Positions 21,793 through 45,095 of a DNA stretch of 64,000 nucleotides are shown here, piece after piece. Origin of the DNA: a virus; the IMG/VR virus record IMGVR_UViG_3300021963_000084, positions 18,460 to 82,459 of that record, one strand, 5' to 3'. The translations under genes were made by a program, and so were the position numbers. The notes beneath the pieces are model-generated. The model ran no database searches. It was not told where the DNA came from and saw only the letters and a list, made by a program, of their open reading frames with translations. Numbering within the stretch: position 1 is the stretch's first letter; each line of letters begins with the position of its first letter.

Positions 21793-21799
21793 TCCTTCC

Positions 21800-21828
21800 T
21801 TGACAACCCTTATAAATTATAGTATGAT
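21800..21828 (+). promoter_or_regulatory. Sigma70-like (early/host RNAP) promoter TTGACA-N17-TATGAT
   Basis: TTGACA 21800-21805, 17-bp spacer, TATGAT 21823-21828. The spacer also holds TATAAATT (late consensus with 1 mismatch). Confidence 0.8.
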
Positions 21829-21851
21829 GTCTATGAAAAATTGTCATTTCT

Positions 21852-23033: not shown

Positions 23034-23037
23034 AACT

Positions 23038-23220
23038 ATGGAACGCACAGAACTTAAAGAAAATTTCACCAATCAGTTTAATACTGTAATCGATGAAATC
23101 AAAAATCTTGAAGCACAATTAACTGCTAAACGAGAAATGGCACTTAAACTTAAAGGCGCTATCGAAGCACTATCACTTTTAGAAACTGAAAATACTGAAG
23201 AAGAACCTTCAGAAGAATGA
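23038..23220 (+). CDS. Small coiled-coil hypothetical protein with acidic tail
   Basis: 60-aa heptad-rich ORF ending LKGAIEALSLL..EEEPSEE, packed tightly behind the glycosyltransferase. Confidence 0.7.
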   Translation: MERTELKENFTNQFNTVIDEIKNLEAQLTAKREMALKLKGAIEALSLLETENTEEEPSEE

Positions 23221-23229
23221 TAAATACAG

Positions 23230-23261
23230 ACCTTCCTTATAAATAACAAGGAAGGTTTTTT
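23230..23261 (+). terminator. Rho-independent terminator with a late promoter in its loop
   Basis: Stem ACCTTCCTT / AAGGAAGGT followed by a T-run. Confidence 0.8.
23238..23245 (+). promoter_or_regulatory. Late promoter TATAAATA
   Basis: Exact consensus about 20 nt upstream of the 23268 ATG. Confidence 0.85.
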
Positions 23262-23267
23262 CATTAT

Positions 23268-23600
23268 ATGTCCGCAATTACAATTAATGTAGTAATAGAG
23301 CAGGGGTCTGATTTTGCAGCGACCTTTACCATTAAGAATGCGGATGGTTCTTACTTGAATCTGACTGGATTCACAGCAGAAAGTAAGATGAAAAAAAGTT
23401 ACTACACTAGTAGTTCTGTGGCATTAAATGTTACTTTTACTGATAGAAGTAGAGGAATGATTACATTATCATTACCCGCTGCAACTACAACTACATTGAC
23501 ACCAAAAAGATACGTTTATGATATTATCTTAACTTCACCAATTGGAGTTAAAACTAGAGTTGTTGAAGGAATTGCTACAGTAACTCCAGGAGTAACATAG
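23268..23600 (+). CDS. Small beta-sandwich virion adaptor (LtfC/p132- or BppU-like)
   Basis: IEQGSDF..TF......LNLTG.T......G.ITLSL..TT..L...RYVYDI.......RVVEG...VTPGVT pattern. Confidence 0.65.
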   Translation: MSAITINVVIEQGSDFAATFTIKNADGSYLNLTGFTAESKMKKSYYTSSSVALNVTFTDRSRGMITLSLPAATTTTLTPKRYVYDIILTSPIGVKTRVVEGIATVTPGVT

Positions 23601-24301
23601 TGTCCGACTTTCAGGTAACGTTAAACACTAATAATTATACTGTAGTTCCACAGGAACCAGATGAATATCGTGTTGGTGTAGATTATGCACCAGATAATAA
23701 ATCTATTCAATATCAAAATTTAATTATTGATAATTTGTCAGGGCAATTTGATTGTGTCCGCAGAACTTTTGATATTAGAGTAGGTGGGGTTTTGTATAAT
23801 GCACTTAACGATCAACAACTTATCATATCACTAAATAATGTTATATTGCAGCCTGGTGTAGGTTATACTGTATCAGGTAATCAGATTACTTTTGCGACTG
23901 CTCCTTGTAATGTTCCCTTTTTTGGTATCGCTTTAGCAAACACCGCTGATTTGACAAGAACCATAAATTATGTTGTTGATTATGGGTCTAGTCCCATTAA
24001 TGTTGGCGATAAAGGGTCTCTTGCAATTGATGTCACTGGTGTGATAGAATCTTGGGTATTGGTTGCTGATCAAATTGGTAGTTTGGTTTTGGACATTAGA
24101 AAAGCATCATATGCTGATTATCCAAATGTCACTACAATATGTGGAGGGACTAGACCCTCATTAGTAAACCAAAACAAAAACACCAGCAGCAATTTAGGTA
24201 CTTGGAATAAAGTTCTTAATGCTGGTGATATCTTAAATTATAATGTTATCTCAGTGACTGGAATCAACAGGTTCTCAATCGCACTGAAAGTAAAATTATA
24301 A
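23600..24301 (+). CDS. Two-domain virion structural protein, 233 aa (GTG start)
   Basis: N-half DNLSGQFD...LIISLNNVILQPGVGYTVSGNQITFATAP resembles modules in the C-half of gp7; beta-rich C-domain. Confidence 0.7.
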   Translation: MSDFQVTLNTNNYTVVPQEPDEYRVGVDYAPDNKSIQYQNLIIDNLSGQFDCVRRTFDIRVGGVLYNALNDQQLIISLNNVILQPGVGYTVSGNQITFATAPCNVPFFGIALANTADLTRTINYVVDYGSSPINVGDKGSLAIDVTGVIESWVLVADQIGSLVLDIRKASYADYPNVTTICGGTRPSLVNQNKNTSSNLGTWNKVLNAGDILNYNVISVTGINRFSIALKVKL

Positions 24302-24304
24302 ATA
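24297..24304 (+). promoter_or_regulatory. Late promoter TATAAATA
   Basis: Exact consensus overlapping the upstream stop; strong GGAGG SD before 24354. Confidence 0.85.
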
Positions 24305-24353
24305 TATTTGAATTCAATACGAAAGTCAATTTTTTCCTCGGAGGAACTTTTAA

Positions 24354-25535
24354 ATGGCTCTTTTAGTCCCAAATATTGGTGAAGTAGATTCGCTTCGCAC
24401 TTTGCTGAATGCGACTCATCAGATTCCAAGAAACTTGGTTCTGAAACTCTTCACTTCTAATACGACTCCAGCTGAAGGTGATGTTCCTTCGGCAACCGCT
24501 TACTTTGAACCATATAATGATTCAAATACTAACGGATATGGTTCGGCACCTACCACAGGATATCCTGCTCTTGTAGATAACCGTGGAGACCAATCATATA
24601 CTGCTAATTACGGTATTCTTCTAAATGGTAATCGTTGGCAGATTTCAACCGCTGGTGATCCAGTAGCATCTTCAACTAACTCAACAGGAACTGCTGGCGA
24701 ATATACCATCACTGTAACTGGTCTTACTGGAACAATTAGTGTAGGTAACCTTGTATCTGGTACTGGTATTGCTTCTGGTGCTAAAGTTTCCAGAGTTTCT
24801 GGTAGCACAGTCATTCTGACAATTGCAAATACAGGTACTGTTTCTGGTGCAATCTCATTCACTGGTGGCGTTACTACTGCTACTTATCCTGAGCAGGTAT
24901 TCACATTTACTTCTGCTGCTGGTAACGTTTATGGTTACTATCTGTCCAGAGCACAGAATATGCCTGTAACTCTGCAGGGTGTTGCAAACGCTGCAACTGC
25001 TGCTGCTGGCACAACTCTGAACAAAGGTGATAACAGCAATCCTTGTATTGGTGTCGTTGGAAACAACTTCATTACACTGCCTAACACTGCAGGTATTATG
25101 GATGATATCACCACTGGTATGGTTGTTGGTGGAAACAATGCTGTTGCTTCTGGAACCACAATCAATGGTATCGACCTTGCTCTCAGAAGAATCTATCTGT
25201 CTTCTAACCTGACCGATAACATTCAGGTTGCTACTGACTCAAGCATTACTCTTGATTTCACTCAGATTTCTACTGGTGGTATCAACCACGGTCTGCAAGT
25301 CGGTGATGTTATCTATGTTGCTCGTGGTACAGGTAATACGACAACCACAGCTGGTCATTACACAATCTTCAGTAAGACAAATACAACATTCCAGACAACT
25401 CCTGCTCTGAATGGAACTGGTTCAGCAACGCTGTATCCAAGCATCCTGTTCGCTGAAAGATTCACAAATGGTCCATACCCAATTCAAAACAACGGCGACC
25501 AAATCAAGATTACCCTGAATGTAAGCCTTGACTGA
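24354..25535 (+). CDS. Virion structural protein, 393 aa; candidate abundant fibre subunit
   Basis: Core MALLVPNIGE..L...LKLFTSN..P...TATYPEQVFTF...NVYGYY...LFAERF..GPY.IQNNGDQIKIT with inserted beta modules. Has its own late promoter, strong SD and a downstream terminator. Confidence 0.75.
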   Translation: MALLVPNIGEVDSLRTLLNATHQIPRNLVLKLFTSNTTPAEGDVPSATAYFEPYNDSNTNGYGSAPTTGYPALVDNRGDQSYTANYGILLNGNRWQISTAGDPVASSTNSTGTAGEYTITVTGLTGTISVGNLVSGTGIASGAKVSRVSGSTVILTIANTGTVSGAISFTGGVTTATYPEQVFTFTSAAGNVYGYYLSRAQNMPVTLQGVANAATAAAGTTLNKGDNSNPCIGVVGNNFITLPNTAGIMDDITTGMVVGGNNAVASGTTINGIDLALRRIYLSSNLTDNIQVATDSSITLDFTQISTGGINHGLQVGDVIYVARGTGNTTTTAGHYTIFSKTNTTFQTTPALNGTGSATLYPSILFAERFTNGPYPIQNNGDQIKITLNVSLD

Positions 25536-25568
25536 TTTTTAAAAATCACTCTTATATTATTAAGTTTG

Positions 25569-25594
25569 GGGGATTACTACGGTAATCCCCTTTT
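25569..25594 (+). terminator. Rho-independent terminator with cUACGg tetraloop
   Basis: GGGGATTAC-TACG-GTAATCCCC-TTTT. Confidence 0.85.
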
Positions 25595-25609
25595 AATTAG
25601 AGAACGTAG

Positions 25610-28600
25610 ATGACAGCATATACCTACAATGCCACATCAAATGAAGGTATGGGCGTTTCGTCCAGTGGGTCGGCTGCGCCTACAATTGTTTACAGTTATA
25701 CAACAGCAACAGAAGATTTAGTTGTTTACAATGATTATTTAAGTGTTTCTCAAGTACATAATGTATCCATAGACTTTGGTAGCATAGTAAGTCCTGGAGA
25801 TGTTGCGTTCGATTATAAGTATATTACACCAGATTTCAATGATCAAAATAAAGTTAAGACATATGGAGGAAGTTCAAATGTCTTAGCAACAAAGGTATTT
25901 AATGGAGAAGGATTAATTAAAGTCGGTGAATATGTACCTCCAGTATTTATTTGGATTGGTTCAGGTACACTCTTTGAAATGGGTGGAGACATTACAAGAA
26001 TGGTGGCACCAGGAATTACTGGTCCACCTATTGTATCGAGCACAACCAGAATTTATACTGGATCTGGTAGTGTAGAATATAATATTAACAGTAGTAAGTC
26101 AAGAAATTATACTTACGACTTTGGTGTATCATTCGATGATACATCATTCATTACAAGAAATTACGGACTGCTGGAGTCACCACACTCTACGGCATTTGAT
26201 TATGGTTCCATTGATAGCTTCAGTAGTTTAGCATACGAAGATTACAGATATATTGATTATATTCCAGTATTTGGAAAACTTTCTATTCAAGGTTTTGCAA
26301 ATCCTCTAAGTAAAGTCTTTACTGAAACTTCATCAGGAACTCTGTTTGAAGTTGGTTCTGTAACAGAATCTATTCTTTATCAAGAACAATCAGATACTAA
26401 TACATCTCTCTTCAGAGTATTTGGTTCTGCAACAATTGATAAAAACCTTCTACCAACTATTAGGTCATATACTGGATTTGCTAATCTATTCAACATTGGC
26501 ACTAAAACTGAATCAGCAACTTACAATTATAATTCTTCTTCAATTGTTGGTTATGCAGAAATTGATTATCAATCAATTACTACTTCTGGAACAACCTCAA
26601 ATTATGGTTCAATAATTGATGAGGTTTCTAATCAATATGATTATGGTTCAATTGTTAATGTTGGTATTGCGAAACCTTACGGTTCTGCTTTTGTAACTGG
26701 TTTCATTGTTAATAAAAACACCAAAACGTTTGTCGGTTCTGGTGATATTTCAAATATCAATGGTTCTGCACAGGCAGTCTCTTATAATACACCAGAAGAA
26801 ACTCTTCTCTTCAATATTTCTGGTGGTTACTCCTCAGCATATCTTGTAAAAACTTATATTGCATCTGGGGATGTTAAAACTGTCATCTCTTCAGAAAATC
26901 GCAATACTTACAATTACGATATTAATGCAGTATCACTTTATAATTCTCAAGACTTTGGTGCAATTACTGCTTCAGGTACAACTGCAAATTATGGCAGTGT
27001 AGCAGTTGGTAGTTCTGCAGAGAAAAATTATGGTTATGTAATTGACAATGACTTTGTATACCCATTTGGTACTCTTACACTATCAGGAAACTTCTCACCG
27101 AAACTCAGAAATTCTTTCTTCGGTTCTGGTGGAGCATCTGTTTATGGAGATGCAACTGTTGTATTCGCAGAACCAACACCTCAAGTTTACAAAGATACCG
27201 AAACAGCTCTCTTCAATGTTTTTGGTGCAGCAACAACAGTATTCCAGAGAGGAGCAATATATTCTGGTTCTGGTTCACTATTCAACATTGGTGGTTCTAC
27301 TTCATCAAGAACCTGGAGTTACACGTTTGGTTCTATTGTAGAATTTGAAAGTGAAAATTATGGATTTATTACTGCGTCTGGAACTACTGTAAATTATGGT
27401 CTGGTTTCTGTTGATAGTGATGCTGAATCTGATTATGGTTATGTATTCAATCGCCAGACTGAATACCCATACAGAGGTCTTACAACCCTCCAAGGTCAAT
27501 CCACCACGATATTCAATCTTGGACCTTCAGTTATTGGTTCAGGTAGTCTGTTTGCAATCAATGGTGCTGCAGATACATCAGCATTTGTAGGTAACGTATT
27601 CGATAGCACAGACCTCTTTAGAGTCACTGGAGATGCTATTGCACTTCGTAGTCCTAAGTATGATGCTTCTGGAGCATACAAAGCACTCTCTGGTTCTACA
27701 AACACTACAACTTATAGCTATAACTTCTCTGCAACTCAAAGTTATACTGAAGGCGATTATGGTTCAATCACTGCCTCAGGAACAACTATTAATTATGGAC
27801 TTGTTTCCGAAGGAAGTTCTGTAGGGTTTGATTATGGTTATGTTATTGATAATAAGATTCTTAAATCACCATTTGGTTCCATCTTCATCAGTGGTGCATT
27901 TAGTAATCTTAAACTTACAGATGCTTATGCTGGTTCTGGAACAATTAATGTTTCTGGTAATGCAGCACTTGTATTTGTTGAACCATCACCACAGATTTAT
28001 GTTGACAAAGACCCAGTTCTCTTCTTCGTAACTGGTAATGCAAATGTAGAATTCTATCGCAGACCTTCCTTTATTGGAACTGGCAGAATTTCCACTCTTA
28101 ATGGTTCTGCATCATCCAGAGTATTTACATATAGTGAGCAGTCAATTAATCCATACAGCACTACAAATTATGGATTTATTACTGCATCTGGAACTACTGT
28201 TAATTATGGTCTGATTATCAATAGCAGTGATTCCGAATTCACTTATGGATTTGTTGTTGAAAGAGGCATTCAGTATCCATACGGAACTCTTCAATTATCT
28301 TCAGAATCAACATCTGCAAAAACAAAAACAGCAGTTGGTGAAGGTTCATTCTTTACCATCAAAGGTTCTGCTGAATCTACTACATTTGTCGATAAGTCTG
28401 TCGAATCTACAGAACTCTTTACTTTATCTGGTGCATCTACTAATAATGTTGCATTCAAAGAATTTGGTTCTGGTTCCATCAAAACTATTCTCGGAACATC
28501 AGATTCTGCAACATATCACTATAACACATCTTCAGTTAATCTGTTTAATACAACAGACTTTGGTTCTATTACTGCATCTGGAACTACTGTTAATTATGGA

Positions 28601-31600
28601 TTAATTTCTGTTGGTAGTGATGCTGAATCTGATTATGGATATGTATTTGATACTATTTCAATTTATCCATTCGGTCCTCTGAATGTTCGTGGTAATGCAA
28701 CTACCGACCTCGATACAGCTCCATCATATGTTGGTTCTGGTTCTCTGTTTATTCTTAGAGGTTCTGCTGATACTTTAGTTCCAGCAATTAAAACTGATAC
28801 CGAGACTTCACTCTTTACAATTTATGGTGATGCTGCAGTTGTATCAAGAACTGCTTATGTTGGTTCTGGTTCAGTGCTTAATATTGGAATTGGTGGAGAA
28901 AGTGCATCATACAACTATAATCAGTCTTCAACATACGCTGATGGATTTGCACAAACTTACACAACCGAAGATTTTGGTCTTATTACTGCATCTGGAATTA
29001 CAGAAAATTATGGAAGCATTACTGTAGGAAGTTCTGCGGAACTTGATTATGGAACTCTTGTAATTGGTAGTGTTGTTGTTCCTTATGGAAACTTAACCAT
29101 CAGTGGTGGAATCAGCAACTTCAAGAGAGCATTTGGATTCTCTGGTTCTGGTTCTATCAATTCTTCTGGTGCTGCAGGAGTTGTATTTGCAGAACCAACT
29201 CCACAAGTTTATGTTGATAAAGAAATTGCTCTATTTAGAGTATATGGTGATGCGACAACTGCACTTAATAGAAGACCAATTTATGTTGGTTCTGGTTCAC
29301 TCTTTAGTATCAGTGAATCTATATCTTCAGTTACTTATAATTATTCCTTCACTTCAATTGAAGAATTTAATACTCTTAATCTCGGAACAATTACAACTTC
29401 TGGAACCACTACAAATTACGGTTCCATAACGACTGGTTCTACTGGTGATATTGATTATGGTTATGTAATTATTAGAGAAACTGAATTCCCATACAGAGGA
29501 AGAGTTGACATTTCTGGTTCTGCTACTGTTCAGTTCAATAGAATTCCATCTTATGAGGGAAGTGGAACTCTATTTGAAACAGGTGGTAGTGCTCTTATCT
29601 TCAGTTTGTTTGGCAAGAAAGTTCTTGAAAGTACAGACCTTTATAATGTTTATGGTAATGCTAAAACTCATTTCGTTCCATCATACAATACTTCAGGTTC
29701 ATTTGCAACTATCAACGCTCCGCAAGATAGTGCATCTTACTCATATAATACCTCATCAATTCTTGGTTATGGAACTCTTAATCTCGGAACAATTACAACT
29801 TCTGGAACAACTGCGAATTATGGTTCTGTAACACAAGGAAGTTCTGCTGAATTTGATTATGGTTACCTAATTGATACTGATGTTGTATATCCATTTGGAA
29901 CTCTCAATGTTTATGGTTCTTCACCAAGTATCAGAATTCTTGGTGTTTCCATTCCTGCAACAGGTTCACTGTTTGCAATTGGAGGCGAAGCAGATTCTAG
30001 AGCAATTACTGTCGAAACAGATACTGAAACAACGAATCTGTTCAATGTATATGGCGAAGCAAATGTTCAGGTTGCCAGTGCATACGATCAATTCTCATCT
30101 ATTTCTTTTGGTTCTTTCTTTGGAACTGGATATATCGAAGAAAGAGCAACCTATCATTACAATACCAGTTCTAAGAATCTTTTCAGTCAATTTGATTATC
30201 AGTCAGTATCTACTTCACCTTCAATTACTGCTGATTATGGTCTCATCATCAATGAAACTAATAGTGAATTAAATTATGGATACATTAATCAAAACCAATC
30301 ACTTTATGCTTTCGGTCCATTTACTATTGGCGGAAGTGTAACAAGTTCGTTCTTACCGACTCTGAACTTTAAAGGTTCTGGAAGAATTGATATTTATGGT
30401 GCTTGCGATCTTGTTGTTATTCTCACTGCTAAGAAAGAACCAGAAAGCACTGACCTCTATGAAGTCAGTGGTTCCGCAAACGTTGCTGTCATCAAACCAG
30501 TACCACAAGAAAAAGGATATATTACTTTACTTTCTGGTGCTGCAGAATCTGTTACTTATATTTACAACGAAACTGTTGTTAATGAATTCAGTGGTATTGA
30601 CTATGGAACAATTACAGCATCTGGAACGACAATTGATTATGGTTCAGTAACAATTCCAAGTAGTAGTGGTATAGATTATGGTTCAGTCGTATTTACCACA
30701 ACAACATATCCCTACGGTTCATTCTCGTATAGTGGTTCTGCAGCAGCAGTATTTAATCTTGGACCAATTTACATTGGATCTGGTTCACTGCTTGCAACTG
30801 GTGGTGCTGCAGAAACTGTATTGTTTGCCGCAGAAACAACAGATCTATTTAAGGTATCTGGTTCTGCAAATGCTCCGTTCATTAAGTCTTATGTTGGCGA
30901 TGGTTCTCTCTTCAACATCGGTGAAAAGATTGAAGCAGCGACCTTCGCATATAATACTTATTCAGTATCAGAATTTGTTTCCCAAGATTATCAGTCAGTA
31001 TCTTCTGTTGCAGGAATCGCAAATAATTATGATTCTATTGATGACGAACCTGCACTTGCACTCAGTTATGGATTAATTACTGATGTTACCACACTGTATC
31101 CATTCGGAACATTTAATGTTTCTGGATCTGCTGCTGTTGTTGCATATCAAGTATACACACAAATTGGTACTGGTTCACTGTTTGCAACTGGTGGATCTGC
31201 AGAAACCAGACTCTTTGCAGAAGTTTCTACAGACCTCTTCAAGGTATCTGGTTCTGCAAATGCTCCATTCAGCAGACCTTATACTGGAACTGGTTCACTG
31301 TTCAAGATTGGAGATAAGATTGAGGCAGTAACTTATAGTTACAATGGTTCTTCTGAAATTCCATTCAATAATTTTGATTATGGTTTAGTTACTGCGTTTG
31401 GAATTACTGAAAATTATGGTTCTATTACAAATAACAGTGCCGTTGCAGAAGATTATGGTTCAATCACTCTGATTGACCCAATCAAACCTTATGGTGCAAT
31501 CAGATTCAATGGTTCATCTGGGGTTGTATTTGCACCAACACCTTATCAAGGTTCAGGTACACTTTTTGCTGCTGGTGGAGAAGCAGATGCAAAAGTTATT

Positions 31601-34675: not shown

Positions 34676-34682
34676 AATATTT

Positions 34683-34690
34683 TATAAATA
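34683..34690 (+). promoter_or_regulatory. Late promoter TATAAATA
   Basis: Exact consensus upstream of 34715. Confidence 0.85.
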
Positions 34691-34714
34691 AAGTAGCAAC
34701 TATTCAACCGCCAG

Positions 34715-34903
34715 ATGACAACACAAGTACAATTCCGTAGAGGAACAACGGCACAACACGCCACGTTTACTGGTGCTCAAGGAGAGATTACAGTAGATAC
34801 CGACAAAAAAACAGCAATTGTACATGATGGTTCAACAGCTGGCGGAATTGAATTAGCCAGAGCGGATGGAGCGATTGCTTATTCCATCATTTTTGGATTG
34901 TGA
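34715..34903 (+). CDS. Stand-alone Mtd-N/hyaluronidase-N-like fibre anchor domain protein, 62 aa
   Basis: QVQFRRGTTAQH..FTGA.GEITVDTDK....HDG.T.GG motif; ends in hydrophobic AIAYSIIFGL. Confidence 0.75.
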   Translation: MTTQVQFRRGTTAQHATFTGAQGEITVDTDKKTAIVHDGSTAGGIELARADGAIAYSIIFGL

Positions 34904-34955
34904 TTTTAGATATATAGTTATAAAGTAAAAACAGCCCTCGCAGGAAATTTAAGAA

Positions 34956-37900
34956 ATGGCAAAGCAGTTATCTTATTACTACACTTTTACACCAGGCACA
35001 AACACTGTTGTAGTGAGTGGTAATGTTAACAGGAAAAGACTGTTACTGATTACCAACACCACAAGAAATGTAATCATTTATAATATGACCCAGCCATCGC
35101 TGGGTGCATCATCAATTACATATAATGATGCAACAAATGAAACTACAGTTGTACTTACATACAATTGTGGTGCTGCTGGAATGCTTTCCACAGACGTTCT
35201 TCAGATTTTCTCTGAACAAGACGCTGTAACATTCCAACCTGCAGATTGGTTAGTTGACCCTGTTAGCAAATTGCGTGTATCGCAACCTAACACTTTGATT
35301 GATACAGACTTTGAATATGGTCTTCAGTCAACCAAGTGGGAATCTCTGGAAAGAGTAAACAACATTCCAAGTTTCTATTCTTCCACAAACGACACTCCAC
35401 TTAGCAACATTACGAGTGTAACTACAAATGGCGGCAAGGAAGTTACGGTAACTACTTCTTCTGCTCACGGTCTGACCACTGGTACTCCAATTGATATTCG
35501 TGGTCTGAACTCAATCACTGCCGAGGGCACATATCTTATCCGTAAGACAACTGATTATCAATTCACCTTTGAGGTATCTGCTGTTCAGGGTGGTACTCCT
35601 TCTATACCTATTTCAATTTTAACACCTTATACTAATGTAATTGTTGGTCGTTTCTATGTCAACTCTTCACTGAATCTTGACAATAGCACAACAAACGAAG
35701 ATGGTCCTATTGCAACTGATTCTGTATCACCATCTAGTACATTAACCGCAACAACTTCGTATGACCACGGTTTTGTTGCTAATGCACCTTTTTATATCAC
35801 AAACAGCCTTGGTAATACTTCGGTAAACTTTGACCCCGCAGCGTTCTCGATCGGTGGTAATATTGAAGATAGAACTGCTTTCGACTTTGATACAGGTTTC
35901 TTTAACCCATATGAACCAGTACACGATGGTTGCACACTCAGAAGAATTCCTGCAACTCAACTTGATAACCGTTCAACAACCGCTGTAGTAACTGGTTCAA
36001 TTTCTGGTACTACTCTTAACGTTTCTGGTGTAACTTCAGGTACTCTTGTAATTGGACAAACAATTACTGGTGCTGGTGTATCACCAAACACTGTAATTAC
36101 TGCTCTTGGTACTGGGTCAGGTGGAACTGGTAGTTATACTGTTAATATTACTCAAACTGTATCTGCTGGTACTACTTTAACTGCAGCATTCCCAACTTCT
36201 GGTTTTATTACAATTCCTAATCATGGACTTGTAACTGGTGATGCAATTTGCTACATCGGTACAACTGGATCACAAAGTCCTCAAATTGCTGCTGTTACCG
36301 CTGGATACTTCCAGGTTTCTTCAGGTAATATTCCAACATATAATAATGGTCCTACAACGCCTGGTCAGAGCACAGACCTCTCCAGTTGGATGTATGCCGT
36401 TGTAATCGATAAGGATACCATTAGAGTAGCAACCAACCCTAAGGATGCTTATGATAGAACTAACCTGATTGTATTCACATCTTTTGGTGATTCTCCTAAC
36501 AATGATCTGTTCTTTGGTCTGATGGCTAAGAGAGGATTTGAAATTCAATCTTCAATCCTAAACGTTCAAACTATTGCTGGTTCTTCTGAAGTAAAAGTAA
36601 ATCTTGTTTCTGGTGCAACTTGCAGAAGTGTTGGCATTTACCCAGAAATGCAGGTAACACTTTCCGACACTGGCGTAAGTGCTATGGATGGTGTTTATGT
36701 AGTCAAGGAAAACCCAGTTACTGTAAACTTTGCAAATGAGATTTTCCAAGAGAATGACACTCATTTCATTATGGAAGGTCCTACAAATGCATCCGCAGCA
36801 CTTGTAACTCAGGCAGCTACTGCTACCTACACCTTATCAGCAACTGCTGCTGCAACTAATGTATTCCTGACACAAAATCTTCTTGAGAGAACTGTAACAC
36901 CAGCAAGCATCGTAACTGTTTCTGGTTCTACTGTAACAATTAGCGGTGTATCTAATCTTGGTGATGGTGCATCTCCTTATAGAGTTGGATCCACTGTAAG
37001 ATTTACAGCTCTCGGTGGTGTAATCACTGGTGCTACTGCGTATACTGATTATTATATCACTGCAGCAACTGCTATTGTTAATGGTGTATCGACACTGACA
37101 CTTTCTTCAACTCATCCAACAGTTGCTAACACAGCACTGACTCTTGCAACTACTGCAACAACTATTGCTACTTGCACGGGTTCGATTTCAGGTACTACTC
37201 TGACTGTAAGCGTAGCTCCAACTGGTGGTACTTTACAAATTGGTCAAGTAATTACTGGAACTGGTATTGCTCCTGGTACTACAATTGTAGGTTTTGGTAC
37301 TGGTAATGGTAGCAACACTGGTACTTACTATGTAAGTATTTCGCAAACAGTATCTTCTACTTCAATTACTGCATCAGTATTCTTGAAAGTTTACACTAGT
37401 GGTATTCGTACTCAGATTCACGCTGGTGCGCTTTCTTGGATGAACCACACCAGAATGTCGATACATGATTGGGGTTCAATCACTGCTAAGATGTTTACTC
37501 GTGAGTGCATCTCAAACAGTGGTTCGCAAATTTTCCTCAAGAATCACGGTCTGTTAAATGGTCAACCTCTGATGTATGTCGGTGGTGGTAACGGTTGGGC
37601 AATTAATAGTGGTACTCCATTCTTCTTCCAAGAATCTGCAAACCAGTCACCAATATACTTCGTTGAAACAGTTGACCGTGATAATATCAGAATTTGGACT
37701 TCTGAACCTGATGGTGTTGTAGGTGCTTATGGTGGTTATACAAATAACGCATCTTCAATTTCTGGTAACCAGCAAGTTACTCTGAGTCCAACAGGTTCAC
37801 CAAGCGTTCTGCCTGTAACTCACGCTGGTGGTGTATATCAACTGCACCCTGGATTTGTAGTTGCAAACTTCACTTCAGTTGCCAATACTCAAGGTCAAGG

Positions 37901-40900
37901 TAGAGATAAGGCTGTCGGTCTGTTCCAGAGAGTCCCTGCTTGGATGACTGAGAATGCTCCTGTCATTATCAAGACTAACGTAGGTGCTTCACTGCCCGTA
38001 TCTGATACAAGACAAGTTCCTGGTGGTTGGCCTTCAACTGGTCCAGCAATTTTCCAATCAACACCAAGTACTTGGGGTACTTCTGCTGCAAACAATACTG
38101 TTCAGTTTGCTAAGTACTTCGCAAGAGGTATTCAGGAAAACTATTCAGGTGAAACAACCTTCACTGGTACTATTGCAGGAACCACTCTTACAGTAACTGC
38201 AGTTCCCGTAAACTCAGTAATTCCAATTCAAGTTGGAATGGAACTGACTGGAACTGGAGTATCTGCTGGCACCGTAATCATTGCTGGTCCTACTGCAGGT
38301 GGAACTGGTACTTATACAGTTAATATTACTCAATCAGTAAGCAGCACCACAATTAGAGGTGTAACTAGAGCAGAATATACTCAGTCAGGTAGAGCAGAAT
38401 TTGCATTCTCGATTGCTCCTAATGGACAACCAATCAACTTTATTACTACAAGTGCTGTTCCTGGAACTTCAACTGCAACTGCTCCAGCAAGATTCTTCTG
38501 CACAAGAGTTGTAGATAATCCTTATGCTAACACATTCTTCCTGCCATTCCACGGTGGTACTGTAGGTAGAAGAACAACATATGTAACTGGTGCGTTCAAT
38601 ACTTCAACACCAGTAGGATCACAAGAAACAGAATCAATTCTTCCTATTGCAACTGGATTCCCAAGACCTGCATTTGATTACATCACCGACCGTAACAACA
38701 TTAGATGGCCAAGAACAAACCTTGTTCTGAACCACGGTGCTGCTCAAGGTACTACAACATTTACTGGTTTCGATTTCAATGGTACTGATTACGCTAACGT
38801 TGTTTCTAACAACACTCGTTATCAAATGGTTCCTCTGACAAATGATATCTTCAGAATTGCACAGGTAGGTACAAGACTACCAACAGGTTCACCTACAATT
38901 CAATTCACACTGAACCAGTCACAAACTCAGAGACAGAACCTTCAAACCGTTGCTAACGTAGGTACAAGAGCTACTAACGCTGCTGGTGGTCCTTTCGGTG
39001 TAACACAAGTCAAGTTCTTGACTTCAGCGACAACAAGAATTCCTAATGCTAATGCAAACAGAATTATTGTTCCTATTCAAAGACTGACATTCCTTGAGAA
39101 TGACCTTGTAAGATATGATACAAATGGTGGTTCCGAAGTTAATAGCTTGTTTGGTGGTCTGAACGGTCTTCAGAATGGTAGCGTTTATTCGATTAAAAAC
39201 GTTTCTCTCAAAACACCTATCGGAACTGGTCTTTCCACAAGCAGAAACTTCAGTTCAACTGCAACTGTATTAGAGTTTGATACTGCAAATACTGCAATTT
39301 ACACTGCTTCGATTGCAGGAAATGTAATGACAGTAACTGCTGTTTCTACTGGTGTACTCCAAGTTGGTGAATTAGTTACGGGAACTGGTGTTGCTGCTAA
39401 TACAATTATTACAGCATTTGGTACTGGAACTGGTGGTATCGGAACATACTCTGTATCTGGTCCAGCACAAACAGTATCATCAACCACAATGCAAGGTGTA
39501 TCCTCAGTAAGAGTTGAAGAAGGAGATATTCTTCAAATTGGTTCTCCTGATGGTGCTGCTGAGCAAGTTCTTGTAGGAGCTGCTGCAAGATTTACTGGTA
39601 GTATTTCAGGCACAACTCTCACAGTTTCTGGAGTAACAAGTGGCACTCTTGCTCTGAATCAAACACTGACTGGAACTGGCGTAACTCCTGGAACAGCAAT
39701 TGTTGCATTTGGTTCAGGTAGTGGTGGTGCTGGTACTTATACTGTTAATATTTCACAAACAGTTACTGCTGGAACTGTAATGGCTGCTTCAAGTGGAAGC
39801 AATTCAATTACAGTAACAAGAGGATTTGCTGGCACAACACCTCAGGCAATTCCAGAGGCTGCTCCAATCTTTAAAATTTTTGGTTCATTCCAACTATATT
39901 CACAGAACTTGCTGACACCAAGAAACTTCACTATTCTTGCTGCTTCGGTCAATGCAACAACCTTTATCTTTACCCAAACTGACCATAGACTGAATACTGG
40001 TGACCCAATCGTATACATCAGTGGTGGTGCTACTGATCCATTCACAGGTGCTGGACTTGCTGCAAACACTATTGTATTTGCAATCGTAATTGATGCAAAC
40101 ACATTCAGAATTGCACCTACTAAGGAAGCTGCATATTCAGACTTCTTCATAACAACCACTTCAACGAATACCAACTTCCTCACAGTTGTTGATACAATTC
40201 CTCTGAAGTCGTTCGTTAACCAGTCTGACTTTGACCACAAACTTCTCAACGTTTCTTCAACTGGTTCGATTGATGGTCCTTATACTGCTCAATCTGTAAC
40301 TTCAAGAACTCTGAGACTGAAGCCAACTAATAATTCTGCACTGACCATTAACCCAAGAGAACTGGTATTCAACCCAGCAAAAACAGTTAACCTGAAGACT
40401 GGTCAGTTCTACTATGGTGGTCACGGTTTCTCGCAAGGAACGAGAGTTATTTACTCCAGAAACGGAAACCGTTTTGAGATTGGTAGACAGAAGCAACTGG
40501 TATTTGAGATTTCTCAAATTAACAGAACAAACAATGTTGCTACAATTACATTTACTGCACCTCATGGTTTAACTGTTGGTCAAACTTATCAGGCACAATA
40601 CCTCAATGTAACGACTGCTGGACAAGATAGTTTTGATATTACAAATGCTCCTGTATTTGCAGTATCAGCAACTCAAGTTTCTTATGCGACTGGTCAAAAT
40701 GGGCAATCAGCAGTTTCTACACAATCTGGTACTGGAACAATGGCGCTGTGGGGCACACAACACCCAATGCAAGGATTTAATTGCCTATATGATATCGACC
40801 TTTCAACTGTTACTGCTCCTGTAGGAAATGGCACTACTGTAACCTACACCATTGCACATAACACAGTTCAAGAACCATTTGCTGTTGGCGATACTGTAAA

Positions 40901-43900
40901 CGTAACTGGTGTTCTGGTTGGAGGTAGCACCAATAATGGTTACAATGGTACATTCAAGGTTGTGTCTTCAACTTCAACCACTATCACAGTAACCAATAAT
41001 ACTACTGGCGGTTCTCCATCTGTTCCTGCAACTGGTTGTTCAATCAGAGGTGTTTATTTCGTAGTTCGTGAAAGTTTCGATATCTTCCGTCTCGCTAGAA
41101 CAAAAGCTCTGGCACACGCTGGCGTAGGTATTCAAAACTTCTCTTGCCAAGGTTCCAACTTTGTTGCTCCAGTTCAGTTTGCAATTAGCAATATTTCACG
41201 TTCAGCAAACGTTGCTACTGTAACAACAGCTGCTGCTCACAATCTTGTAGTTAATCAAACATATAATGCTTCTATCATTGAGATTACAACTGCTGGTTTC
41301 TTATCATTCGCAGCAAGCAACGTATACATTACTGTCACTGGTGCTAATACATTTACATATGCTAACGCTGGTACGAACGTAGGTTCAACTGCTGTTACTG
41401 GAACTCTGACAATTTCAGGTATTAATGAAGTTGGTCATAAACTGATTTCGTTCCAGGTAAGTGGTGAAACTCTGGGTAATGGTACTGCTACCGTTATCGC
41501 AAGAGACGCTATCCTGACTGACCCAACAACACTTGCAAACAGTGTAAGACCAGCGACCGATAGAATCTCTTTCGGTATAGTGAGTCACGGTTTCGTAACG
41601 GGTGACCGTATTACCTACCGTATTTGGGGTAATGGTTCTGTAATCCTTGGTCTGACTGATGGTGCTAATTATTTTATTAACAACACTGTCAACCCTAACA
41701 CGACTGGTCCTCTCTCAAGAGGTGGTGTTGAATCTGGACAAACTGCAACACAATTCTCACTTCACAATACTTGGGTAGGTGCTTATACCAACACTGATAT
41801 TGTTGATATTCTTGGTGGTGGTACTGGTGCTCTGCATCAGTTTAAGGTTTCCAACCCAACTCTGAGAGGCACTACATTCAAGGGTGAATGGTCATCTGGA
41901 GATAACTATGCTTACGGTGATGTTGTCACATATCGTGGCGAATACTTTATGTCAGTCAGCGGTGCTACTGCTCCTGGGCAAACAACATTTGTTGCTAACA
42001 CTGGTAGAACTCCTGTAGAAACTAGTGGTGCATATAACAACGCTTGGCAGCAGGTTCCTAACCTTCCTGCATACTCATCAAGATTCCTTGCACAGTATAA
42101 GGGTGGCGATACAGTTCTTCTGTCGAATACTGTTCCAACGAGAACTGTTCCTTTTGCTGCTAGTGTTACTACACCTTCACAAACAACTGGTGTATTCTCT
42201 GTTGCTAACCACAGACTTGCTACGGGTGATGGCGTAATTTACCGTACTAATAACCTCGGCGGTCAAAACTCCAACGGTTCATCACTGCAGAGCATTTATG
42301 CATCAGGTATTCCACAAAGACCACAAGCTGGTAACAGCGTAGTCTGGAATAACGATAAAATTCTTGCTGACAACATCTATTATGTAAACGTTCTCGATGA
42401 GAGCAACTTCACGCTGCACTTATCACTTGCTGGAGCACTTTCAGGTAACTCTTTCGTCGGCAACATTAACCAACCAACTGGTTTTGCGATTACCAACTTC
42501 ACAAGAGCTCAAATCAATAACATCTGGACTAACACTATTACTGCTACCTCTCACGGTCTCGTAGTTGGTGCAAGATATCTGGGTTCTGTTGATTGTGCAA
42601 CTGGTCCTGCTGACCCATCAACTTTTGACGCATACAACGTAGTTCTGACTGTAACTGATGCTAACACACTGACATATCCAAGTACAACCTCGGGTGCTGT
42701 CGGTTCAATTGCTGGTACTGGTACTCTGAGACTTATCGACGCAACTGATTTGGTAATTCCTGGTTCAGCATTCACTGGAACTGGTGTTCATAGACTTGAG
42801 AAACTTGAAGGTGTTGTTTATCAACCAACTGTTATCTCGGTTAACAGCGATAACGAAATGGTTATCACTGACCCACTGCCTTCCAGACAGATTGTATTCA
42901 ACCCACAAGGTTCATTCGTAAATCAGGCTGGTACAACTCAACCAATTGTTAACCTTGTAACTGGTGACATTTATCTGCCCAATCACGGTATTACTACTGG
43001 TACTAAACTGTACTATTCATCTGGTTTCCAGATTGGTACAAGACTTGGTAATACTCCTGTCGCTGCTGGTATTTACTTTGCAATTAAGATTAACGATGAT
43101 ATTATTAGACTTGGTGCAAGCACGACTGCTGATGCTGCAAACGCATTAGCAAACCTGTCTGCTGCTCTTCGTGGTCAAGCATTTGTTCCATCATCAACAG
43201 GTTCTGGTTTCAACCACTACCTCATCGTTGCTGCTCCTGCTGGTTCTACCAACATTCGTTATAACACAAGTGGTGATTTAATCAATGATACAACTGGCGC
43301 TGCAGCTGCTAACATTGGACCCGCAAACTCCAACTACTACAGCAACCAAGTTTCTGCTAACCTTCGTGACGGTGTACTTCAGGGTGTTAACTTCCTGTAT
43401 CCAACTCAAGTTTATACCAGAGCAAACTGTGTTAACGTTCATAGACCATTTGACGGTGGTGTAGAACTTCAGGCTGCTAAGGCACCTCAAGTTATGATTA
43501 CCAGACAGACACGTAAGTACTTCCGTTATCAGTCTGGTAAGGGTCTCCAGTATTCAACTGGTATCAACTTCAGTCCATCACTGGATGTTTCATACATCAC
43601 GCACGATGGTTCTACCTATGCAACTATTGTAACCAGAAAGGCACATAACCTTGTTGCTGGTAACAGAATTATGGTAGAGAACGTTGAAGTAACTTCAGGT
43701 GTAGCAACTCCATACACAAATCCATCAAACAATCTGTACTTCACAGTATTTGATGTAATTGACGAGTTTACCTTCCGTTATGCAACAAACGGAGTACCTG
43801 CAGACCTCGCTCCTTCAGGATTCCCAGATCTGTTTGTATACGAATGGTCTGGTGCTTCTGTTCGTGCTGGTATGTTTGATGACCAAAATGGTATGTACTT

Positions 43901-45047
43901 TGAATATGATGGTCAAAATCTGAATTGTGTAAGAAGATCTGCAACTGGTCAGTTAGGTGGTTTTGTAAGTGTAGCATTCAACAGCAATATTGTAACTGGT
44001 ACTAACACTAGATTTACTAAGCAACTTTCACCTGGACACTCAATCGTCATTCGTGGACAAACCTACAAGGTTGGTTCGGTTGTAAGTGATACTCAAATCA
44101 ACATCACTCCTGCATACAGAGGTGTTGCTGGTAGCAGAATCGTTATGACGAAAGTTGAAGAAGTCAGAGTTCCTCAATCACAGTGGAATATTGATAAGTG
44201 TGATGGAACAGGAATTAATGGATTCCACCTGAATATTCACAGAATGCAGATGGCATACATTGATTACTCCTGGTATGGTGCTGGTAAGGTACGTTTCGGA
44301 TTTAAGGATACTGATGGTCGTGTATTCTACTGCCACGAGTTTGTACATAACAACAAGAAAGTTGAAGCATACCTCCGTTCTGGTAACCTTCCCGCTCGTT
44401 ATGAAATTGAAAATGGTATTAACCCAACCTACTCACCATCGCTCTATCACTGGGGTGCTTCGGTAATTATGGATGGCGTATTTGAGGATGACAAGGCATA
44501 CCTGTTCACCGCTGCTTCAGGTTCCGCTGGTTCTGACATTATTACAGTTCCTCAGTCTCTCGCAGGAACAGTTGTTCCAATTCTTTCACTGAGATTAGCA
44601 CCTGCTGTTGATAGTTCTCTCTCTGGTTCACTTGGAAGCAGAGACTTAATCAACCGAATGACTGTTAAACCTAACTCTTGCGGTCTGGTTATTACTAACG
44701 CAGCAAGCAGAGCTGCTTCGGTTCGTCTGATTCTCAATGGCAACCTTTCACAATCTGCTTATTTTAGCGGTTATGGTTCACCATCACTGTGTCAAGTAAT
44801 TAAGCACACTGGTCAGGCACAAGATACTATCACTGGCGGTACGATTGTATTTGAATTCCGTGCTGCTGCTGGCGCTCCTATCACTCAGGACCTAGGACAG
44901 CTGATTGAACTTGGTAACTCGATTATGGGCGGTGACTTTGTATATCCAAACGGTCCAGATATTCTGACTCTGGCAATCGTTCCTACTGATACTGGTGCAG
45001 TAACAACCGTCACTGCACGTCTCACCTGGACTGAATCGCAGGCATAA
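34956..45047 (+). CDS. Giant fibre/adhesin-like virion protein, 3363 aa
   Basis: Many H(G/N/R)L..G..I beta modules, five ~65-aa TGSISGTTL repeats, one CBM5/12-like motif, and a C-terminal core shared with 48504-49778. Confidence 0.8.
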
Positions 45048-45069
45048 TTCTCTCAAACATAAGATACAG

Positions 45070-45095
45070 AGAGGGGGGCAACCCCCTCTTTTTTT
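45070..45095 (+). terminator. Rho-independent terminator with GCAA (GNRA) loop
   Basis: AGAGGGGG-GCAA-CCCCCTCT followed by a T-run. Confidence 0.9.

Follow-up and report, generated by a model that had tools for sequence, protein, structure and literature searches.

A candidate beads-on-a-rope fibre module in a T4-like myovirus

Gene order and expression signals of the module

The window, which is the whole 64-kb stretch of marine T4-like cyanophage DNA analysed here, contains six ORFs at 23268-45047, each of which is open on the + strand. The first gene (23268-23600) encodes a 110-aa protein with an Ig-like beta-sandwich resembling T5 p132 and LtfC, a candidate adaptor or collar protein. The second (23600-24301, GTG start) encodes a virion protein of 233 aa whose N-terminal domain is of fibre type, also a candidate adaptor. 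They are followed by a 393-aa gene (24354-25535), here called the bead gene, and by a 3021-aa gene with periodic repeats (25610-34675), here called the long gene or candidate rope. The last two genes encode a free-standing Mtd_N domain of 62 aa (34715-34903; PF18454, E 5e-18) and a giant virion protein of 3363 aa (34956-45047; phrog_5838, E 2e-173; phrog_1645, E 1e-50). In T4, gp9-12 and wac lie between the baseplate wedge genes and gp13/gp14. The first-pass annotation placed the six-gene module at this map position, and the flanking genes, of gp6/gp8 baseplate type and gp13/gp14 neck type, bear this out. The module shares late transcription with T4 gp9-gp12/wac, and none of the six proteins matched a family named for T4 gp9-gp12 or wac in the Pfam and PHROG searches.

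The late promoter motif TATAAATA occurs eight times in the window, always on the + strand, and comparison with the ORF table placed seven of the eight copies just 5' of a gene start. The count is within chance (8 vs 6.05 +/- 2.34 in shuffles), so the evidence for promoters is the placement of the motif and not its number. The copy before the 110-aa gene (23238-23245, +) sits in the loop of a hairpin with a T run (23230-23261, +) directly 5' of that gene; the terminator scan gives this inverted repeat on the - strand. The copy belonging to the bead gene (24297-24304, +) overlaps the stop of the 233-aa gene, and a GGAGG Shine-Dalgarno (SD) sequence (24340-24344, +) is located 10 nt 5' of the ATG. 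The bead gene is followed by an intrinsic terminator (25568-25596, +) with a 10-bp GC-rich stem, a UACG loop (hairpin 25568-25591) and a U run, which ranks first among the terminator-like sites in 19000-38000. The spacer between bead gene and long gene has a folding energy of -19.3 kcal/mol (z = -2.94). A motif scan found no TATAAATA in this spacer (25536-25609), and the next copy lies before the 62-aa gene (34683-34690, +). The first-pass annotation had given the 393-aa gene its own late promoter and GGAGG, a UACG terminator after it, no late promoter to the 3021-aa gene and a new one to the 62-aa gene, and all of these were confirmed.

We surveyed this layout in 22 loci in which the bead gene and the long gene are both complete. 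The order promoter and SD, bead gene, terminator, long gene was found in all 22. TATAAATA lies within 90 nt 5' of the bead gene in 22/22 loci and in the spacer in 0/22. Every locus has an SD-type motif before the bead gene but only one has it before the long gene, and the spacer always contains a hairpin (dG -8 or lower) with a T run (22/22). In 20 of the 22, a further TATAAATA follows the end of the long gene by no more than 80 nt. The unit of bead gene, terminator and long gene is kept throughout (22/22) despite divergence of the long protein. Thus, the synteny of short subunit, terminator and long repeat gene proposed earlier is conserved, and the promoter, SD and terminator support an expression layout suited to many subunits per template.

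Among 31 ORFs, the 393-aa gene (TTC 0.82, CTG 0.48) is second to the major head gene at 58856-60211 (0.94, 0.64) in these codons, and its AAC fraction (0.50) is below those of the head gene (0.75), the gp21-like gene (0.62) and the giant (0.59). The giant shows much of the same bias (AAC 0.59, TTC 0.56, CTG 0.38), and G+C content is 0.40-0.43 over 24-46 kb vs 0.29-0.36 upstream. The gp23-like C-ending codons noted in the first pass are therefore present but shared by the giant, and codon bias alone is weak evidence of copy number.

The bead protein and the candidate rope

The 393-aa protein belongs to phrog_10467, to which no function is assigned. It matched no Pfam family itself, and a search of the contig with PF23140 gave no match. 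Its family profile finds many proteins of ~130-140 aa (minis), which match stretches 1-47, 165-200 and 365-393. With the mini P0430, BLASTP gave three collinear matches (E 1e-11, 2e-10 and 9e-13), and P0430 itself exceeds the PF23140 cut-off of 27 with 30.3 bits. Five of ten tested minis (~132 aa) pass the Pfam cut-off for PF23140 Gp80 over nearly the full model length, and among the best 120 minis, 13 have a precomputed PF23140 match without any other family. The alignment of the 393-aa family with 41 minis by hhalign has a probability of 99.94% (E 8e-37), and ESM features put the 393-aa protein beside a PF23140 cluster (score 0.95). In the PDB, the mini profile scored best with the 171-aa chain 26la_U/44nx (E 0.12), which we take, by PDB code and length, to be A1002 fibre II gp41. 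The GP4-clade profile does not directly detect the cyanophage bead family, and minis compared with the narrow GP4 clade by hhalign and hmmsearch were at noise level, so the link to gp80 rests on the broader Pfam model. Through the minis, transitive homology most likely makes the 393-aa protein a split relative of gp80 (PF23140), the GP4 Fiber I protein. Its gp80-like core consists of three segments (aa 1-100, 171-200 and 363-393), separated by two inserted domains (about aa 101-170 and 201-362). The number of inserts differs among homologues, and the inserts weakly resemble modules of the giant fibre protein (E 0.026-0.13).

The 3021-aa protein begins with a unique N-terminus (aa 1 to ~115) and has a main period of ~133 aa over residues ~200-2250, in which about 15-17 repeats each consist of three ~20-aa elements and a ~65-aa 'DYG' module. 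The ~20-aa period (lags 20/41/61) dominates only at residues ~2250-3021, where ~20-aa elements cover aa ~2250-3007 and a conserved C-terminal peptide follows (aa 3008-3021, nt 34631-34672). We estimate that the protein carries roughly 85-105 Gly-rich ~20-aa elements. The first pass described a periodic chain of such elements; the elements are there, but the main period over residues ~200-2250 is another one. The ~65-aa modules look like folded domains. A strict-unit regex, chosen after the data were seen, counted 41 units in the 3021-aa protein, 0 in three other giants of the window, 0 in 3 shuffles, and 29, 18, 8, 6 and 2 in positional homologues. The conserved end of the long proteins is the C-terminus (motif ...R..[FY]...II in 22/22 loci), and the N-termini vary. 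BLASTP aligned the 3021-aa protein with the ORF after the mini bead gene of one locus (L016), with repeats in register (E 1e-11). It had no PDB match and matched no known rope sequence, and parts of the long gene matched only S-CAM1 and S-CAM3 by tblastn, at about 25% identity. In S-SCSM2R the positional homologue is ORF111, labelled 'TolB', which is among the proteins reported from the virion proteome (PMC12801897).

Periodic proteins also accompany the mini bead genes. In a motif-free test, a periodic ~20-aa ORF starts within 4 kb downstream of the mini gp80-like gene in 20 of 28 viral loci, and the same test found no periodic ORF downstream in the other 8. The test was passed by 23 of 102 downstream ORFs vs 3 of 448 other ORFs, a contrast that is overstated because the threshold was set after the ranking had been seen and the loci are related to one another. 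GP4 gp79, encoded directly after gp80, is also ~20-aa periodic. We take gp79 to be the putative GP4 rope; a sequence search did not find it in the PDB. These results support the view that the ~20-aa Gly-rich elements of the long protein are of the kind found in proteins encoded after gp80-like genes elsewhere. Given its homology to the gp80 family, whose members thread on a rope, the 393-aa protein would most likely be present in many copies and dock onto the 3021-aa chain via the ~20-aa strand elements. The gp80 bead homology and the Gly-rich elements support the earlier proposal that it polymerises along this chain, with a presumed binding of bead to rope.

Adaptors, giant protein and the proposed fibre

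The 110-aa protein matched phrog_3304 'L-shaped tail fiber protein assembly' (E 1.4e-25) and phrog_1084 (E 3e-29); it scored 23.6 bits on Pfam LtfC, below the cut-off of 27, and E 0.42 with T5 p132 (7qg9_R). It has tblastn matches in 46 of 86 loci; among the matches listed, the distance from the bead gene, on its 5' side, is about 1 kb. The 233-aa protein matched phrog_10330 'virion structural protein' (E 9e-79), and a profile of 10 homologues matched residues 575-664 of gp28 (PDB 8i4m, E 1.8e-6), a fibre protein of cyanophage P-SCSP1u. Its tblastn matches, in 49 loci, are mostly directly upstream of the bead gene. Because both are co-conserved upstream and known systems use an Ig-like adaptor, it is plausible that these two candidates anchor the fibre.

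The Mtd_N domain forms the N-terminus of the giant ORF112 in S-SCSM2R and is part of 152-aa proteins in S-SSM7, S-CAM1, S-CAM3 and Sf-FS3. The 3363-aa giant had no unit-HMM matches and no similarity to S-SCSM2R ORF112 at E 1e-5, and its C-terminal domain is paralogous to the ORF at 48504-49778 (E 2e-19). The first pass saw the giant as an adhesin capping the fibre. This is not supported: the giant is served by a promoter of its own, relatives carry unrelated Mtd_N-led fibres in the slot downstream of the long gene, and the long protein is conserved at its C-terminus and not at its N-terminus. The 62-aa protein and the giant, maybe an adhesin, probably form a separate fibre.

We favour, with moderate confidence, the reading that the four genes at 23268-34675 build a very long, chain-like 'beads-on-a-rope' virion fibre. 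The bead homology, the rope periodicity, the linkage of both kinds of gene and the conserved signals are observed; from these we infer binding, occupancy, copy number, attachment site and function. The bead would be the 393-aa gp80-type core, folded like GP4 Fiber I, A1002 gp40/gp41 and the Bas63 whisker, and would show two inserted adhesin-like domains on its surface. The rope would be the extended 3021-aa chain, in which each ~20-aa element lends the strands missing from the beta-sandwiches of one bead dimer, as in the solved systems. The conserved C-terminal peptide of the rope, with the 110-aa Ig-like and the 233-aa proteins, would anchor the fibre at the neck, where the genes lie, or at the baseplate. 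Expression would set stoichiometry: the late promoter and strong SD would serve the bead gene, and the terminator would pass only read-through transcripts to the SD-less rope gene. Points against this reading are the A1002 match of only E 0.12, the codon bias shared by the giant, and the dimensions that such a fibre would reach. A rope occupied along its whole length would carry about 170-210 beads and make a fibre of 0.2-0.3 um, and six such ropes would bring the virion to >1000 beads. The TEM description of S-SCSM2R, in the accessible text, does not mention fibres.

It is possible, although unlikely, that there are two structures: short whiskers of the 393-aa protein, on another rope or joined head to tail as in A-1(L), and an independent, self-folding repeat fibre of the 3021-aa protein. 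Template-free assembly of a bead chain exists in A-1(L), judging from the part of the report available (PMC10966104), the long slot is highly variable (the S-CAM1 and S-CAM3 matches), its ~65-aa modules resemble folded domains, the fully loaded size is hard to accept, and 8/28 mini loci lack a periodic neighbour. However, in all the solved cases considered, as far as the accessible texts go (PMC13730344, PMC12609058), a rope fills the gap in the gp80-type sandwich, ~20-aa periodic proteins are concentrated right after bead genes, and the bead-terminator-long gene unit persists although the long protein diverges. We regard it as quite improbable that the 393-aa protein is abundant but outside any fibre, as a head or sheath decoration or a chaperone for the giants, with signals that reflect high expression only. 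Its promoter, strong SD, terminator and codon bias would fit this, phrog_10467 has no assigned function, and ORF110 is not mentioned as a virion protein in the accessible S-SCSM2R text; against it are the homology to the gp80 fibre bead family, the weak resemblance of the inserts to modules of the giant fibre protein and the steady association of its gene with the 110-aa, 233-aa and long genes. Least probable is that the compositional and codon signal of 24-46 kb reflects horizontal acquisition from higher-G+C Synechococcus phages and not the level of expression, with the motifs as ordinary late-gene punctuation of no stoichiometric meaning: the raised G+C, the C-ending bias of the low-copy giant and the fact that all module-carrying isolates are Synechococcus phages agree with it, but the SD contrast and the terminator are independent of composition and conserved across lineages with different sequences, and it says nothing on protein roles.

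Comparison with known fibres

Rope-templated fibres are published for GP4, VP1, A1002 and Bas63, and the accessible parts of the reports describe gp80-type beads as dimers threaded on a rope strand by beta-sheet augmentation in GP4, A1002 and Bas63 (PMC13730344, PMC12609058). The earlier remark that a ruler-templated fibre was not described holds for T4-like phages, for which our literature search found none, but not for these phages. Fiber I of Ralstonia podophage GP4 consists of gp80 dimers on a separately encoded rope (PDB 8JOU) with the Ig-like fibre-tail adaptor gp77, as related in the same texts (PMC13730344, PMC12609058). As in GP4, the bead here belongs to PF23140, reached through the minis, the bead gene is directly followed by that of a ~20-aa periodic Gly-rich protein (gp80, then gp79), the rope is a separate gene, and a small beta-sandwich protein is encoded nearby. 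GP4, a podophage, has five dimers of a 140-aa bead per rope, whereas the T4-like myovirus has a 393-aa bead with two inserted domains and a 3021-aa candidate rope with roughly 85-105 elements and ~65-aa 'DYG' modules, which have no counterpart in known ropes. The 110-aa protein is p132/LtfC-like and not gp77-like, and a Pfam search did not find PF23148 in it. The Fiber I structure is reportedly that of Zheng et al. (2023, J Mol Biol).

In Pseudomonas podophage A1002, the nozzle-rope gp39 carries 11 dimers of gp40/gp41, with about 24 rope residues per dimer, in the part of the report available (PLoS Biol 2026, PMC13730344). Beta-sheet augmentation by ~24 residues is close to the ~20-aa element here, where binding would be of the same kind, but the A1002 rope is a domain of the nozzle protein, and its two bead proteins form 11 dimers that span ~300 A. 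In the collar-whisker complex of Bas63 (and Sf14), the whisker is described as a structural relative of gp80, and the rope as a short N-terminal extension of the Ig-like collar that holds two dimers (Sci Adv 2025, PMC12609058, accessible text). Bas63 has a contractile tail and a neck-borne complex, and the genes found here directly precede the neck genes gp13 and gp14; in Bas63 the rope is part of the collar, whereas here the candidate rope is a separate giant and the Ig-like protein has only 110 aa without extension. The neck fibre of Anabaena myophage A-1(L) is given as gp82-(gp81)14-gp80 trimers, ~100 nm and beaded (Nat Commun 2024, PMC10966104, accessible text). This cyanophage myovirus also uses many copies of one small protein with single-copy end pieces, but the trimers are joined head to tail without a template, unlike the rope proposed here, and the A-1(L) 'gp80' is not the gp80 of GP4.

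In summary, the beads-on-a-rope design has been solved so far only in much smaller form, in few other phages, and the fibre proposed here would serve multivalent host adhesion.

Position of the module and relationships of its 393-aa protein

The window belongs to an IMG/VR viral contig of 82,459 bases from a T4-like cyanomyovirus. The module consists of six ORFs encoding proteins of 110, 233, 393, 3021, 62 and 3363 aa, and the ORF table of the window confirmed that all six are open on the plus strand at the coordinates proposed in the first-pass annotation. PHROG matches of the flanks revealed that the six ORFs sit between a baseplate block, with wedge genes at 354–2198 (phrog_219) and 10171–11736 (phrog_438), and neck genes at 45126–45920 (phrog_211) and 45920–47020 (phrog_460). 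Genes for the major head protein (58856–60211, phrog_138), a sheath stabiliser, the small terminase, the sheath and the tube were also identified. This position is the one occupied in T4 by gp9–12 and wac. Direct searches of NCBIfam found no family for any of the six proteins, Pfam had no match for the 233-, 393-, 3021- and 3363-aa proteins, and phmmer against the PDB gave no match for the 393-, 3021- and 3363-aa proteins and chance-level matches only for the 233-aa protein. Megablast of 23268–25600 against the phage collection returned no match. A group-1 glycosyltransferase gene (21852–23033; PF00534, phrog_2170) lies inside the fibre block, adjoined by a 728-aa fibre-like gene on one side and by the module on the other; Ser/Thr-rich fibre proteins might be its substrates.

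Fibres built as beads on a rope were reportedly first seen by cryo-EM in 2023. In Bas63, PMC12609058 describes gp80-type proteins with an N-terminal helix and an incomplete beta-sandwich, which form dimers strung 'like beads on a string' along an extended rope, and this rope completes their sheets. According to PMC13730344, the rope of GP4 is encoded by a gene of its own and carries five dimers; in A1002, eleven dimers share about 268 rope residues and span about 300 Å, and these figures give about 24 residues and ~27 Å per dimer. As far as these two texts cover them, the known ropes carry 2 to 11 bead dimers (the podophages GP4 and A1002 and the felixounavirus Bas63) and are anchored by an Ig-like adaptor or collar (PMC13730344, PMC12609058). 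A ropeless chain of beads is described for Anabaena phage A-1(L) in PMC10966104. The first-pass annotation regarded a ruler-templated fibre as undescribed for T4-like phages. The architecture itself is already known from GP4, VP1, A1002, Bas63 and Sf14, but we found no report joining chain-like fibres to T4-like cyanophages.

The 393-aa protein (24354–25535) is a member of phrog_10467, to which PHROG assigns no function. Homologues were found in 17 phage records, of the Synechococcus phages S-SCSM2R, S-SSM7, S-SSM6a, Sf-FS3, S-CAM1 and S-CAM3 and of one uncultured marine virus, and the family has 947 relatives (E <= 0.001) among the candidates scored in a metagenome protein collection. Pfam gave no match, at E up to 10, for the 393-aa protein or any of 27 family members. 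The 393-aa protein itself stays below the gathering score (27 bits) of PF23140, and the PF23140 model matched nothing on the whole 82-kb contig. The only PDB match of the family profile, an N-terminal one to a 'surface anchored protein' (E 0.019), was discarded as too short (28 residues).

The alignment of the family showed conserved N-terminal, middle and C-terminal parts with a variable number of modules between them. A profile search of 1.84 billion representatives revealed many proteins of ~130–140 aa, hereafter minis, whose matches fall into exactly three stretches, residues 1–47, 165–200 and 365–393. By their sequences, the minis are the core of the 393-aa protein without its inserts. 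Comparison by hhalign of the 393-aa family with 41 minis gave a probability of 99.94% (E 8e-37), and BLASTP of the 393-aa protein against one of the minis, P0430, gave three collinear segments (E 1e-11 to 9e-13). PF23140 matched 3 of the 41 minis at E <= 1, and among the best 120 minis, 13 had a precomputed match to PF23140 and to no other family. Ten drawn from these 13 were rescanned, and five exceeded the Pfam gathering score of 27 bits, with 27.3–30.3 bits from about model position 7–21 to 121 of 128. The minis sit at the edge of PF23140, the family of gp80, which is the Fiber I protein in podophage GP4; by way of the minis, the 393-aa protein is connected to PF23140 members by transitive homology over the whole domain. 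In the ESM Atlas it also lies beside a PF23140 cluster (0.95). The best PDB match of the mini profile was a 171-aa chain of 26LA/44NX (E 0.12), which we take, from the PDB code and the length, to be fibre II gp41 of A1002. Direct comparison with GP4 was negative: hhalign of A1 or A2 against GP4 gp80, GP4 gp79 or a 23-member GP4-clade alignment gave probabilities <1%, and hmmsearch in both directions between the minis and the GP4 clade gave noise-level scores. We conclude that the 393-aa protein is very probably a bead of the gp80 type, whose inserts occupy approximately residues 101–170 and 201–362. The first insert shows a weak likeness to a module that recurs in the 3363-aa giant (E 0.026–0.13).

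The long repeat protein and its linkage to the bead gene

The 3021-aa protein (25610–34675) is built of repeats over most of its length. Residues ~200–2250 comprise 15–17 repeats of ~133 aa, each with three Gly-rich ~20-aa elements of the C-terminal type and a ~65-aa module with spaced DYG/NYG motifs, and residues ~2250–3021 repeat at lags of 20, 41 and 61. Counting both types, we estimate 85–105 elements of ~20 aa. A unit model trained on this protein recognized 41 strict units in it and none in three other giants of the window or in three shuffles, and its positional homologues contain 29 (S-CAM3), 18 (S-CAM1), 8 (S-SSM7), 6 (S-SCSM2R) and 2 (Sf-FS3). A rope would be an extended chain with periodic docking strands, at about 20–24 residues to each bead dimer. 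In this candidate rope the periodicity and the Gly-rich elements are present and specific, and no match to a solved rope was found in the PDB. In the lineages covered, the long proteins measure 1093 to 3021 aa, with 1529 aa in S-SSM7 and 2558 aa in S-CAM3. At the DNA level, TRF detected no tandem repeats within the long gene, indicating that the repeats are old. The N-termini of the long proteins differ between homologues, whereas their last ~13 residues (...R..[FY]...II) are conserved in 22/22 loci; this suggests that the C-terminus is likely the anchor.

In the 22 loci in which both genes are complete, the long periodic gene comes immediately after the bead gene. In GP4 (L006, MH638294), gp80 is likewise directly followed by gp79 (27948–28925, minus strand), which is Gly-rich and periodic at lag 20, and gp79 may be the GP4 rope. 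Its sequence is absent among PDB chains; the rope may have been deposited without its sequence, or gp79 may not be the rope at all. Our survey covered 80 loci of viruses that encode a protein related to a mini, and in 37 of them the bead is itself a mini. In one such locus, L016, the mini is followed by a 391-aa protein with nine 20-residue repeats that align in register with the C-terminal repeats of the 3021-aa protein (BLASTP E 1e-11); a repeat-unit HMM built from this ORF alone matched only itself. By a strict regular expression, composed after inspecting these proteins, 26 of 1534 ORFs were motif-rich, and 25 of these start no more than 3 kb downstream of a bead gene, but such downstream ORFs were detected in only 9/28 mini loci. 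A motif-free test based on identity autocorrelation at lags 18–24 was more telling: in 20/28 mini loci with room, a periodic ORF of the same strand starts no more than 4 kb downstream. This test was passed by 23/102 downstream ORFs as against 3/448 others (odds ratio 43), a contrast whose p-value is not literal because the periodicity threshold was set after the ranking was known and the loci are related. Pfam assigned no family to 8/10 ORFs downstream and 10/10 ORFs upstream of mini bead genes.

Several mini loci have a small conserved ORF of 73–132 aa between the bead and periodic genes (L008 8409–8801, L009 8409–8807, L014 8401–8622, L017 8402–8626, L021 8414–8674 and L027 8503–8811); the cyanophage module showed no counterpart of it. 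In the S-SCSM2R giant ORF112 (L001, the genome PQ898602, 25290–35501), the periodicity scan also marked a stretch near residue 340 with a period of ~20 aa, and in gp7-like giants (L002 556–9561; L005 2061–9539) it marked stretches with a period of 18 aa.

In GenBank (PQ898602; L001 20001–25240), the S-SCSM2R bead homologue is labelled 'tail fiber rope protein', and the repeat protein is labelled 'TolB' and treated as non-structural in PMC12801897. The two labels look swapped or wrong. That same paper reports the 'TolB' homologue of the long gene in purified virions, and its text does not name the bead homologue among the proteins detected. The proteomes of Sullivan 2010 are those of S-SM1, S-PM2 and Syn9, none of which is among the 17 phage records with a bead homologue.

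Expression signals, candidate anchors and the giant

The first-pass annotation proposed that many subunits are made per template, and the signals on which it relied are present. The late-promoter sequence TATAAATA (24297–24304) and GGAGG (24340–24344) both stand ahead of the 393-aa gene, and positions 25568–25591 form a terminator with a 10-bp GC stem, a UACG loop and a U run. The 74-nt spacer ahead of the 3021-aa gene has no TATAAATA, the next copy being at 34683–34690. The window contains 8 copies, all on the plus strand, which is not above chance (6.05 +/- 2.34 in shuffles), so the evidence is the placement of the copies. We then compared the layout in 22 loci with both genes complete; besides the window itself, these come from the genomes of five isolates and from 16 contigs of metagenomes, and many of the loci are closely related. 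TATAAATA was found ahead of the bead gene in 22/22, in the spacer in 0/22 and after the long gene in 20/22; an SD-type motif stands ahead of the bead gene in 22/22 and of the long gene in 1/22; and a spacer hairpin (-8 kcal/mol or better) with a T run occurs in 22/22. The terminator stem sequences differ between lineages. The layout expected of a many-to-one expression design is therefore real and conserved. The codon bias claimed for the 393-aa gene was observed, as this gene ranks second after the head gene among 31 ORFs (TTC 0.82, CTG 0.48), but we give it little weight because the giant is also biased and the region is richer in G+C. Together, the layout and the bias are indirect evidence that a virion may hold many beads per rope. 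A hairpin with a T run at 23230–23261, after a 60-aa ORF, holds TATAAATA in its loop; this single element could terminate transcripts arriving from upstream and also initiate late transcripts of the 110-aa gene.

In nearly all the cyanophage loci examined, the 110-aa (23268–23600) and 233-aa (23600–24301) genes precede the bead gene. The 110-aa protein matches phrog_3304 (E 1.4e-25). Its match to Pfam LtfC (23.6 bits) falls short of the cut-off, 27, and its match to T5 p132 has an E of 0.42. We class it as p132/LtfC-like; no link to GP4 gp77 (PF23148) was seen. The N-terminal domain of the 233-aa family profile matches residues 575–664 of the fibre gp28 (PDB 8i4m, E 1.8e-6) of P-SCSP1u, a T7-like cyanophage, and this domain also occurs inside giant virion proteins (phrog_701, phrog_2885). 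By analogy only, the two proteins are candidate anchors. GP4 gp83 and gp82 (112 and 220 aa) were considered as their counterparts and dropped, gp82 being an SU10-type head-tail adaptor.

The 62-aa protein (34715–34903), described as Mtd_N-like from the start, is indeed an Mtd_N domain (PF18454). Here it is a separate ORF in another frame than the giant (34956–45047) and does not lead that protein. In 21 loci the long gene is followed by an Mtd_N domain, which lies within 152-aa proteins of S-SSM7, S-CAM1, S-CAM3 and Sf-FS3, and is fused to the N-terminus of the giant ORF112 in S-SCSM2R (L001 25290–25421). Mtd_N shifts between being split off and being fused. The proposal that the giant caps the bead fibre is not supported: the giant has its own promoter, and the unit model found no rope units in it. 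Apart from the Mtd_N domain, nothing in it resembles ORF112 at E 1e-5, and it was rejected as an ORF112 homologue. We read the 62-aa protein and the giant together as a distinct fibre that has its own promoter and is exchangeable. Residues 3004–3217 of the giant (43965–44606) are paralogous to a 424-aa ORF (48504–49778; BLASTP E 2e-19) located between the small and large terminase genes.

A putative bead-and-rope fibre in cyanomyoviruses

T4-like cyanomyoviruses are among the most abundant viruses of the sea. The fibre first envisaged for this module is partly supported: bead homology, gene linkage and the many-to-one layout speak for it, and the giant as its cap is not supported. We lean towards a model in which the 393-aa protein is a bead on the 3021-aa rope. 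In the putative complex, bead dimers would complete their beta-sandwich with rope strands by beta-augmentation. By analogy with A1002, at its ~27 Å per dimer, full loading would imply about 170–210 beads per fibre and a length of 0.2–0.3 µm. Fibres are not mentioned in a TEM description of S-SCSM2R, and it is quite possible that the rope is partly occupied or that part of the chain is folded.

A fuller reading, which we offer tentatively and consider somewhat improbable in all its parts together, is that every rope is fully loaded. Roughly 85–105 dimers would then sit on each 3021-aa chain, forming a flexible 'hair' of 0.2–0.3 µm that displays a few hundred adhesin-like insert domains, with its length set by the repeat number and the interspersed ~65-aa modules serving as joints or as a second kind of binding site. 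Among virion proteins the bead would rank second in abundance, in a widespread group of marine cyanomyoviruses, and bead fibres, not classical tail fibres, would be the first to touch picocyanobacteria.

The promoter–SD–terminator layout would be a clean natural example of subunit ratios set by attenuation. If the bead-on-rope model is true, novelty would lie in the scale of the fibre, in its decorated bead and modular rope, and in the group of phages that carry it: the bead-rope design would be extended to T4-like cyanomyoviruses, at about ten times the scale of known systems and with decorated beads. Four conserved genes, annotated as hypothetical or mislabelled in isolate genomes, would obtain a concrete function, and a testable rule is offered in which the repeat number determines fibre length. 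The bead fibre would also be a candidate first-contact adhesin, relevant to the host range of cyanophages.
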